A stretch of DNA of 4,061 nt. Origin: a virus (lineage: Duplodnaviria; Heunggongvirae; Uroviricota; Caudoviricetes). Numbering within the stretch: position 1 is the first letter of the stretch; every line of letters begins with the position of its first letter. Under the pieces are notes generated by a model. That model saw only the letters and a program-made list of their open reading frames with translations, did no database searches and was not told the DNA's origin. The stretch lies in IMG/VR virus record IMGVR_UViG_2703718793_000006, one strand, 5' to 3'. This document shows, one piece after another, positions 1,690-3,798 of the stretch. Position numbers and translations under genes: made by a program.

Positions 1690-2895
1690 ATGGCGGTTGA
1701 TATTAAAGATGTGGAACAGGTCGCGCAGGAGCTGCAGCAGAAGTTTGACGACTTCAAAGCAAAGAACGACAAGCGCGTTGAGGCGATTGAGCAGGAAAAA
1801 GGCAAACTTGCCGGGCAGGTGGAAACCCTGAACGGAAAACTCAGCGAGCTGGAAAATCTCAAAAGCGACCTTGAAAAAGAGCTGCTTGAGCTGAAACGTC
1901 CGGCAGGTGGTGCGCAAAATAAACTGGCCACCGAGCATAAAGAGGCGTTTGTGGGCTTCCTGCGTAAAGGCCGTGAAGACGGTCTGCGCGATCTGGAGCG
2001 TAAGGCATTGCAGGTGGGCACCGATGAAGACGGTGGCTATGCCGTGCCGGAAGCACTGGATCGCAACATTCTCAACCTGCTGAAAGATGAAGTGGTGATG
2101 CGCCAGGAAGCCACGGTGATCACCGTTGGCGGTTCCGACTACAAAAAACTGGTGAATCTGGGCGGCACGGCTTCCGGATGGGTTGGCGAGACTGACGCGC
2201 GCTCCCAGACTGCCACCTCAAAACTGGGACTGATTGAACCTTTCATGGGGGAAATCTACGGTAACCCGCAGGCCACCCAGAAAATGCTGGATGATGCCTT
2301 TTTCAACGTGGAGGCCTGGATCAACAGCGAGCTGGCAACCGAATTTGCCGAACAGGAAGAAATTGCCTTTACCACCGGCGATGGTACCAAGAAGCCGAAA
2401 GGGTTCCTGGCGTATGAATCCACTGATGAAACCGACAAGGTCCGGGCATTCGGCAAACTTCAGCATATTGTATCCGGCGAAGCGACGGCAGTGACTGCAG
2501 ATGCCATTATCAAACTGATTTACACGCTGCGTAAGGCACACCGCACCGGCGCGAAGTTCATGATGAACAACAACAGCCTGTTTGCCATTCGTCTGCTGAA
2601 AGACACCGAGGGTAACTATCTGTGGCGTCCGGGGCTGGAGCTGGGGCAGCCGTCCTCTCTGGCGGGTTACGGTATCGCTGAAAACGAACAGATGCCGGAT
2701 ATTGCCGCTGATGCGAAAGCCATTGCATTTGGTAACTTCAAACGGGGTTACACCATCGTTGACCGTATCGGTACCCGCATTCTGCGTGACCCGTACACCA
2801 ATAAACCGTTTGTCGGTTTTTATACCACCAAGCGCACTGGCGGCATGCTGGTCGATTCGCAGGCCATCAAACTGCTGAAGATTGCAGCGGCGTAA
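1690..2895 (+). CDS. Major capsid protein, HK97 fold, with N-terminal coiled-coil delta (scaffolding) domain
   Basis: AGGAG at 1678-1682, 7 nt before ATG 1690. 401 aa. The first ~100 residues are strongly charged and heptad-like (…QELQQKFDDFKAKNDKRVEAIEQEKGKLAGQVETLNGKLSELENLKSDLEKELLELKRP…), as expected for a delta domain. They are followed by a region resembling HK97-type capsid proteins (…GTDEDGGYAVPEALD…, …YLWRPGLELGQPSSLAGYGI…, C-terminal …KPFVGFYTTKRTGGMLVDSQAIKLLKIAAA). It follows directly after portal and protease with no separate scaffold gene. Confidence 0.92.
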   Translation: MAVDIKDVEQVAQELQQKFDDFKAKNDKRVEAIEQEKGKLAGQVETLNGKLSELENLKSDLEKELLELKRPAGGAQNKLATEHKEAFVGFLRKGREDGLRDLERKALQVGTDEDGGYAVPEALDRNILNLLKDEVVMRQEATVITVGGSDYKKLVNLGGTASGWVGETDARSQTATSKLGLIEPFMGEIYGNPQATQKMLDDAFFNVEAWINSELATEFAEQEEIAFTTGDGTKKPKGFLAYESTDETDKVRAFGKLQHIVSGEATAVTADAIIKLIYTLRKAHRTGAKFMMNNNSLFAIRLLKDTEGNYLWRPGLELGQPSSLAGYGIAENEQMPDIAADAKAIAFGNFKRGYTIVDRIGTRILRDPYTNKPFVGFYTTKRTGGMLVDSQAIKLLKIAAA

Positions 2896-2902
2896 TCATT
2901 CA

Positions 2903-2924
2903 GGGGGCGCAGAAGTGCGCCCCT
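2903..2924 (+). terminator. GC-rich stem-loop immediately downstream of the capsid gene (putative intrinsic terminator, attenuator or mRNA 3'-stabiliser)
   Basis: Perfect inverted repeat GGGGCGCA (2904-2911) / TGCGCCCC (2916-2923) around a GAAG tetraloop (2912-2915), 8 nt after the capsid stop. The downstream tract GTTCTG is T-poor, so this is not a canonical strong rho-independent terminator. Confidence 0.4.
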
Positions 2925-2945
2925 GTTCTGACAGGTGAAAGAATC

Positions 2946-3134
2946 ATGATCCTGAAACAAGATCTGAAATGGTCACCGGACGGTATACGTGTTGAGATTA
3001 TTCGGGCCGGTGAGTATGAAGATAAAGAATTACCCGAACGGGTACGCGAAATTGCCATTGCAGCTGGGATTGTCTCTGATAAGAGAACACCTGTTGCGCG
3101 GGGGGCTGATAAGTCTAAAAAACAGCATTCATAG
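2946..3134 (+). CDS. Hypothetical small protein (62 aa), unknown function, between the capsid and head-tail connector genes
   Basis: ATG 2946 preceded by AGGTGA (2933-2938) with a 7-nt spacer; stop TAG 3132-3134 lies 11 nt before the next gene. Same strand and packing as the neighbours. I recognise no family from MILKQDLKWSPDGIRVEIIRAGEYEDKELPERVREIAIAAGIVSDKRTPVARGADKSKKQHS. GC is lower than in the head genes. Confidence 0.5.
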   Translation: MILKQDLKWSPDGIRVEIIRAGEYEDKELPERVREIAIAAGIVSDKRTPVARGADKSKKQHS

Positions 3135-3145
3135 AGGTTGCCCAA

Positions 3146-3451
3146 ATGATGCCCACTCTGGAAGAGCTTCGTGTTCAGTGCCGGATTGATGATGACAATG
3201 AACAGGAGAATTCTCTTCTTATGATGTATCTGGCTGCCGCCAGGGAAGAGGCTGAAAAGTTTTTAAACCGGACGCTTTACGATGAAACTGTTTCTGAGCA
3301 GGATGCGACCGGGCTTGTAATAACACCTCTGATAAAACTGCGTCTTATGCAACTGGTTGGCTACTGGTACGAGAACAGGGAAATGCAGGATGCAGTGCCT
3401 GATTTTTTCTATACCGGACTGCGGATGTATCGGTTTCATCCCGGAACATAG
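3146..3451 (+). CDS. Head-tail connector protein, gp6-like (Phage_connect_1-type; also annotated as DNA-packaging/head completion protein)
   Basis: ATG 3146 with AGAGG (3133-3137) upstream. 101 aa. The N-terminus 'MMPTLEELRVQCRIDDDNEQENSLLMMYLAAAREEAEKFLNRTL' matches the characteristic '…LEE(L/V)KxHLRIDxDDED…L…AAREY(I/A)E…' signature of gp6-like connectors. Stop TAG 3449-3451. Confidence 0.85.
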   Translation: MMPTLEELRVQCRIDDDNEQENSLLMMYLAAAREEAEKFLNRTLYDETVSEQDATGLVITPLIKLRLMQLVGYWYENREMQDAVPDFFYTGLRMYRFHPGT

Positions 3452-3459
3452 GAGGATTC

Positions 3460-3798
3460 ATGCAGGCAGGAAGATTACGTGATCGTGTGGTTATTCTGAA
3501 TGCCACCACCGTTCGGTCTCCATCAGGGCACCCTGTGGAAACAATGACGGAGGGGGCAACCATATGGGCAGAAGTTAAGGGGATCAGTGGCAGGGAGAGA
3601 ATATCCGGAGGCGCAGAAACTGCTCAGGCTACAGTGAGGGTCTGGATGAGATTCCGGCGAGATGTGACAGCAACTTCATGTCTGAAAGTGCTGACTGGTG
3701 CATTCAAAGGCGCGATTCTGAGTATAGACGGTCCGCCGATACCGGATGCCCGTGCCACCCGGCTTGAGATACTCTGTTCTCAGAAGGGGAATGTGTGA
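3460..3798 (+). CDS. Head closure / head-tail adaptor protein (Phage_H_T_join-type, SPP1 gp16 / HK97 gp7-like)
   Basis: GGAGG at 3451-3455, then ATG 3460. 112 aa starting 'MQAGRLRDRVVILNATTVRSPSGHPVETMTEGATIWAEVKGISGRE…', which matches the 'M.AG.LRHR(V/I).(I/L)Q…' N-terminus and size typical of this family. Stop TGA 3796-3798 overlaps the next start. Confidence 0.85.
   Translation: MQAGRLRDRVVILNATTVRSPSGHPVETMTEGATIWAEVKGISGRERISGGAETAQATVRVWMRFRRDVTATSCLKVLTGAFKGAILSIDGPPIPDARATRLEILCSQKGNV

Follow-up and report, generated by a model that had tools for sequence, protein, structure and literature searches.

The window analysed here is a 4,061-nucleotide stretch of viral DNA (Caudoviricetes; IMG/VR record IMGVR_UViG_2703718793_000006). 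The gene under study is a short open reading frame (ORF) at positions 2946-3134, between the gene for the major capsid protein and that for the head-tail adaptor Ad1. The features in and around the ORF are as follows:

1690-2895, + strand: HK97-fold major capsid protein gene (PF05065, E = 3e-79)
2903-2924, + strand: GC-rich 9-bp hairpin after the capsid stop codon (folding computation)
2933-2938, + strand: Shine-Dalgarno sequence AGGTGA, 7 nt 5' of the ORF's ATG (read from the sequence)
2946-3134, + strand: the ORF, a member of phrog_1020, with ATG at 2946-2948 and TAG at 3132-3134, 62 aa
2946-3074, + strand: ORF codons 1-43, acidic core, predicted to be folded (alignments and an AlphaFold pLDDT of about 80)
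3013-3022, no strand: module boundary in the ORF, codons 23-26 (blastn HSP ends at 3022, 3013 and 3019)
3075-3131, + strand: ORF codons 44-62, predicted disordered tail with few hydrophobic residues and the Lys-rich tip DKSKKQHS (pLDDT and family statistics)
3146-3451, + strand: Ad1 (gp6-like) head-tail adaptor gene (PF05135; phrog_40)
3460-3798: head completion protein gene (PF05521)

The window also encodes a portal protein and an S78 prohead protease, the latter in the same orientation as the ORF, and thus carries the head genes of an HK97-type prophage. The translation of 2946-3134 is MILKQDLKWSPDGIRVEIIRAGEYEDKELPERVREIAIAAGIVSDKRTPVARGADKSKKQHS. Inspection of the sequence bore out the description given in the initial annotation of this DNA, which had listed the ORF, its ribosome-binding site, its co-orientation with the flanking genes and its basic tail. 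Downstream, the ORF is tightly packed against the Ad1 gene, which has its own GAGG ribosome-binding site and starts 11 nt past the ORF stop codon; in Klebsiella, the Ad1 start overlaps the stop codon.

Several details of the neighbouring genes were noted. The portal gene is split by 146 N at 492-637, which makes the portal frame unreadable in the window. The protease starts at 989 in the mechanical list of open reading frames and at 1025 according to the phi467 annotation (651 nt); with either start, the protease gene begins before the portal gene ends at 1047. Among solved structures, the nearest relative of the capsid protein is the capsid of the Rhodobacter capsulatus gene transfer agent (6TB9, E = 8e-75), with solved phage capsids being more distant. 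The first ≈85 residues of the capsid protein gave coiled-coil-type noise in the Pfam scan, consistent with an N-terminal delta (scaffolding) domain.

It had been stated initially that the ORF matched nothing recognisable. This is correct for Pfam, NCBIfam and the PDB, searched by sequence or fold, but a catalogued family does exist: the HMM of phrog_1020 matches the ORF over its full length (residues 1-62 to profile positions 1-62 of 66; E = 3.7e-34, 117.8 bits). This PHROG is listed with function unknown and contains Sb7 of ST64B together with hypothetical proteins of phi467, vB_EcoM-606R7, SfI and SfII. Sb7 and the phi467 protein CUW01221 are orthologues of the ORF. Protein identity to the ORF is 97% for phi467 and vB_EcoM-606R7 and 56-61% for ST64B, SfI, SfII and SfIV. 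All of these phrog_1020 relatives occupy the same place after the capsid gene and show no difference in kind from the ORF. The alleles differ in their tails, however: the window allele finishes in the short tail 'IVSDKRTPVARGADKSKKQHS' and comes with a neck and tail of siphovirus type, whereas the ST64B and Sf alleles finish in '...KEKKATTSKEG' and come with a Mu-like contractile tail. Searching 1.8 billion representative proteins with a profile, together with an indexed search, extended the family to Klebsiella, Citrobacter, Enterobacter, Yersinia, Pectobacterium, Serratia, Lonsdalea and others; these wider members are all called hypothetical, and none of them has a Pfam domain. SfIV (NC_022749) encodes an intact 66-aa family member at 3065-3265 that is unannotated in both the RefSeq and the GenBank records. 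The most distant profile match was P0069 (70 aa; phrog_1020 E = 9e-11), found on the metagenome contigs L088-L090, where it lies after a gene for a 484-aa protein matching Wzy_C rather than after a capsid gene. P0069 thus represents either a second genomic context for the phrog_1020 family or a doubtful member.

The negative searches were as follows. No family was matched in Pfam or NCBIfam scans of the ORF protein, even at E ≤ 1 in the case of Pfam. PDB sequence searches, whether with the single sequence or with a 46-sequence profile, returned chance-level matches alone (E ≥ 0.15), and an Rfam scan of the window at E ≤ 1 gave no family. Homology to PD40/WD40 propellers was considered and rejected. 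The start of a PD40 blade resembles the "KWSPDG" strand-turn-strand of the ORF, and the family profile matches many propellers, but only over the 10-20-residue "WSPDG" motif, which is repeated in proteins of 300-1600 aa; the ORF has a single copy of the motif and itself had no Pfam PD40 or WD40 match at E ≤ 1. From the extent of these matches, we read the likeness as motif-level convergence and not homology.

Alignments of the family define a core of ≈43 residues with the pattern L-K-W-S-P-D-G-x-R-V-E-x-I-x-A-G-E-Y...L-P-x-R-A-x-E-I-A-x-Q-L-G-I. Residues W9, S10, P11, G13 and A37 are invariant in 46 sequences from many genera. The family plan comprises three parts: an acidic core, a disordered linker that differs widely in length between members, and, at the C-terminus, a polybasic tip. 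Among 132 distinct intact members, the mean net charge was −2.5 for the core and −2.1 for the linker. The tail was 10-93 aa long (median 24) and had 5% hydrophobic residues. The last seven residues had a mean net charge of +2.3, reaching at least +2 in 101 of the 132 members, and the tip typically reads KKSKK, KKGKK or KKAKK (KKxKK). The window's ORF, which ends in KSKKQHS, is a short-linker version of this plan.

An AlphaFold model made from the 46-sequence alignment (mean pLDDT 70.8) was used in preference to an 8-sequence version (57.6), which was set aside. In this model, the core is predicted to consist of short β-strands followed by one α-helix at residues 31-40. The pLDDT is about 80 for core residues 1-43 and falls below 50 from residue 47 onwards. 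Fold searches with the predicted core, PDB representatives included, gave no match. The linkers of several members carry repeats, such as 13 PEQ in Enterobacter soli, QQPE in Serratia and an E/A/K-rich sequence in the 129-aa Endozoicomonas member (repeat-bearing loci L099, 3754-4056; L104; L109; and L111, 3797-4186). Tandem repeats of varying copy number suggest that linker length varies by slipped-strand events.

Relatives of the ORF are encoded at 456 loci in IMG/VR, and the frame was intact in 82 of the first 83 of these. Compared with the diverged SfIV and ST64B alleles, the core (first 43 codons) had a dS of 0.66-1.53 and a dN of 0.18-0.20, corresponding to dN/dS values of 0.27 and 0.13. 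Conservation at the same position in related prophages, which had been proposed as a check, was confirmed across many genera. Purifying selection on the amino acids together with this conserved position rules out a chance ORF. The option of a non-functional ORF, raised initially, can therefore be dropped in the face of purifying selection, conservation of position across genera and hundreds of intact copies, and we consider it highly probable that the ORF is a genuine gene for an accessory head-module protein. A 281-bp query comprising the 3' end of the capsid gene and the ORF matched, at least in part, 1019 of 5426 complete E. coli genomes (≈19%, with partial matches counted), making this head module very common; it is also present in serotype-converting phages of Shigella and in prophages of the ST64B type in Salmonella.

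Some database variants of the ORF are shifted at the homopolymers G6 (3100-3105) and A6 (3117-3122) in the part encoding the tail. In P0005, P0007, P0008 and one 80-aa IMG/VR copy, translation passes into the +1 frame and continues into the adaptor gene, probably because of sequencing errors or prophage decay. Programmed frameshifting at A6 was considered and rejected, since the zero-frame sequence TCT AAA AAA CAG does not fit the canonical X XXY YYZ pattern; without such a slippery heptamer, homopolymer length errors or decay are the better explanation for the shifted variants.

The gene order TerL, small ORF, portal, S78 protease, capsid, ORF, Ad1, HCP is found in Pectobacterium, Yersinia and Klebsiella, in phi467, SfIV and ST64B, and in about 12 further genera. 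The slot itself, in which the capsid gene is followed by a hairpin, the ORF and Ad1, is common to phi467, ST64B, SfI, SfII, SfIV and prophages of at least 12 enterobacterial genera. Downstream, the tail modules differ and are either lambda/HK97-like and non-contractile (Klebsiella, siphovirus) or Mu-like and contractile (Yersinia, myovirus). The small ORF between the terminase large subunit and portal genes is a conserved one of 61-62 aa (L084, 1686-1871; L085, 1667-1855; L086, 1688-1873), and the copy from Pectobacterium was matched by phrog_502, a family with the label membrane protein/moron.

Nucleotide comparisons place a module boundary inside the ORF. By blastn, the head module of SfIV is 97.8% identical in DNA to the window from the portal gene to position 3022, and that of ST64B is 93.7% identical from the portal gene to position 3013. 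The Klebsiella head module is 76.5% identical from the portal gene to 3019, with similarity resuming at 3439, a little ahead of the head completion gene at 3460. Base composition changes in the same region: the GC content is 0.54 in the portal, protease and capsid genes, 0.46 in the ORF and 0.47 in the Ad1 gene. The 3' part of the ORF and Ad1 make up a separate low-GC block (0.46-0.47), flanked on both sides by sequence with a GC content of 0.53-0.545. In 19 lineages, core and capsid protein diverged in step (partial Spearman rho 0.46, permutation p about 0.001); Ad1 showed no such relation to the core (partial rho 0.09, p = 0.13). Taken together, the end of DNA identity inside the ORF and the tracking of the capsid protein by the core place the ORF on the capsid side of the module boundary. 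Physical linkage alone could be the source of the co-variation between core and capsid.

The distribution of the ORF was surveyed in one genome per species, scanned with the capsid protein. The ORF was present in most lineages with a capsid identity of at least 72%. Mangrovibacter, with a capsid 83% identical, has no ORF, and Ad1 directly follows the capsid gene. The ORF is likewise missing from Xenorhabdus, Proteus, Morganella and Gilliamella (capsids 65-70% identical), in which the capsid gene adjoins Ad1, and from alphaproteobacterial relatives, in which Ad1 comes directly after the capsid gene. Its absence from close relatives indicates that it is required by neither capsid nor adaptor. 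In one Morganella morganii locus (L119, 3781-4086), the slot is filled by an unrelated 101-aa gene (phrog_4827, function unknown), showing that the slot takes unrelated accessory genes. An Arsukibacterium prophage encodes a 104-aa protein with an N-terminal low-complexity extension that aligned to the family with an hhalign probability of 59%, and, judged by this alignment, it may be a distant relative. The initial suggestion of a head-completion or decoration accessory thus holds in the generic sense of an accessory of the head module, given the fixed slot, the co-variation with the capsid and the dispensability in relatives.

The hairpin at 2903-2924 has a centroid energy of −18.8 kcal/mol (z = −1.98), and five of 200 shuffled sequences folded as well. 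It is terminator-like, with a weak U-tract. Post-capsid hairpins were found in all six ORF-bearing lineages examined, with stems that differ in sequence and, in some cases, a proper T-run, and also in eight of the nine ORF-lacking relatives examined. The structure, rather than the sequence, is kept across the capsid clade (the window, L003, L002, L084-L086, L100 and L112-L131). Since the hairpin is present with or without the ORF, it belongs to the 3' end of the capsid gene. The stem-loop does sit between the capsid stop codon and the ORF, as had been noted initially, but the implied tie to the ORF was wrong, in view of the ORF-lacking relatives that have it. The pattern suggests a conserved element that terminates or attenuates the capsid message or stabilises its 3' end; lying upstream of the ORF, the hairpin could lower expression of the latter. 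No promoter-like (sigma-70-like) sites were found in 2600-3500, and no plus-strand terminator was found after the ORF, the sole hairpin being the one upstream. The related phage SfI has been reported to have its early, regulatory and Nin regions in common with lambda (PMC3636060). By analogy, read-through of the hairpin would be plausible if late transcription is antiterminated as in lambda.

The most economical reading of this protein anatomy is a tether. In such a scheme, transcription of the head genes would read through the post-capsid hairpin into the ORF. The capsid lattice is the head protein on which the acidic core would most likely dock, and DNA is the polyanion to which the flexible linker would most likely present the lysine tip. 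The protein would then assist at a stage between prohead assembly and neck attachment, in DNA packaging or head completion. In the morphogenesis operons of tailed phages, the order of the genes usually follows the order of action, and the slot between capsid and adaptor therefore points to action at that stage.

Lambda gpFI offers a parallel to such a tether, and we tentatively suggest, by analogy, that the ORF encodes a late-expressed, capsid-associated tether that works like gpFI without being homologous to it. Lambda FI lies between E and FII, just as the ORF lies between the capsid and Ad1 genes. gpFI is an accessory, non-essential packaging chaperone, and the ORF is absent from close relatives. 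In gpFI, a capsid-binding domain and a second functional region are connected by a flexible middle linker, which is acidic in sequence. A gpFI-like role is favoured by the shared slot, the accessory character of this packaging chaperone and the acidic, flexible middle. According to PMC4856287, gpFI is proposed to reside on the gpE lattice and to exert its effect by binding DNA non-specifically. There are also clear differences. With 132 aa, gpFI is twice the length of the ORF, its capsid-binding domain is C-terminal, so that the parts are in reversed order relative to the ORF family, and it has two functional regions, whereas the basic tip of the ORF family is a motif and not a domain. Moreover, the majority of family members carry a net negative charge, and DNA binding through five lysines would be weak, both of which argue against a tether. 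A gpFI-type chaperone would bind the prohead lattice, stimulate formation of the terminase-prohead-DNA complex and be absent from mature virions. Literature searches on Sb7 and related proteins turned up no relevant proteomic, Ribo-seq, genetic or other functional work. Homology to gpFI was tried and rejected: the hhalign probability was 0.5% (E = 0.13 over 14 columns), and there was no Pfam or fold match.

It is also possible, although we would not call it probable, that the family represents a previously unrecognised class of capsid-tethered proteins, built from a ≈43-aa docking domain of new fold, a variable spacer and a polybasic tip, and acting either as a non-homologous stand-in for gpFI during DNA packaging or as a tunable brush on the surface of HK97/RcGTA-type capsids; in that case, prophages in about a fifth of complete E. 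coli genomes would carry it.

Rather unlikely, in our judgement, is a dispensable decoration or surface protein of the virion, in which the core would sit on the outer capsid lattice and the acidic or proline-rich linker and its Lys tip would form a stabilising or adhesive brush. Very small decoration proteins exist, for example SPP1 gp12 with its 64 aa. The ORF resembles lambda gpD and SPP1 gp12 in its small size and its place next to the capsid gene, and such proteins can often be dispensed with or vary in presence among related phages. Some close relatives lack the ORF, as is usual for genes of decoration proteins; the ORF adjoins the capsid gene and co-varies with the capsid, and its fast-evolving, low-complexity repeat linkers are typical of exposed segments. 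However, the protein has no likeness in fold or sequence to known decoration proteins, and we know of none in which a disordered linker with a polybasic tip is a feature. The ORF also differs from the genes for gpD and gp12 in its place: it comes after a terminator-like hairpin, and is neither upstream of the capsid unit nor fused into it. This would be an odd slot for a protein made in capsid-like amounts, although late antitermination could allow transcription to read through. A search of the virion proteomics literature yielded no report of the protein, and no virion proteomics or cryo-EM literature was found for a phage carrying the ORF.

A moron-type gene with a role outside morphogenesis, for example in anti-defence or directed at the host, and housed in a permissive slot after the terminator, would fit a slot that is variably empty, filled by the family or, in Morganella, occupied by phrog_4827. 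The position after a terminator-like hairpin and the lower GC content of the ORF compared to the portal, protease and capsid genes would fit as well. We nevertheless consider this reading improbable. The ORF has neither a promoter of its own nor a downstream terminator that we could find, and its low GC content is common to the Ad1 gene. Morons are usually discrete insertions, but here the module boundary cuts through the ORF and not around it. In addition, the core co-varies with the capsid gene, and the family was found in one slot only across genera and tail types, with P0069 as one doubtful exception.

It is very improbable that the ORF has no function, or serves just as a translated spacer allowing ribosomes to load again at the adaptor gene beyond the hairpin, with the peptide itself being irrelevant: the ORF is indeed short and without a characterised homologue, the adaptor start is close to its stop codon (or overlaps it, in Klebsiella), relatives manage without it and frameshifted copies occur in databases, but this reading is contradicted by the selection data (dN/dS 0.13-0.27), as well as by the five residues that are invariant in 46 sequences, by a tip that stays polybasic while the linker changes completely, by a core that is predicted to fold, and by the adaptor gene's own GAGG site.

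The three-part architecture, the optional but capsid-linked distribution, the module boundary inside the gene and the reassignment of the hairpin to the capsid gene are new for a family whose members bear the label "hypothetical" wherever they are annotated and whose SfIV representative is left out of the RefSeq record. As a selected, modular and optional head-module protein, the product of a previously unassigned ORF offers a simple case for asking whether HK97-type heads other than those of the lambda group rely on a packaging helper like gpFI. Should the protein be a minor decoration or fitness factor only, it would be of local interest to phage annotators.

Finally, enterobacterial prophage sequence was encountered under the labels Enterococcus phage Efm 3-10 (OR844966.1, 1429 bp), a Bacillota MAG and Martelella alba (the latter two in L110 and L103); these off-taxon labels probably reflect contamination or mis-binning.
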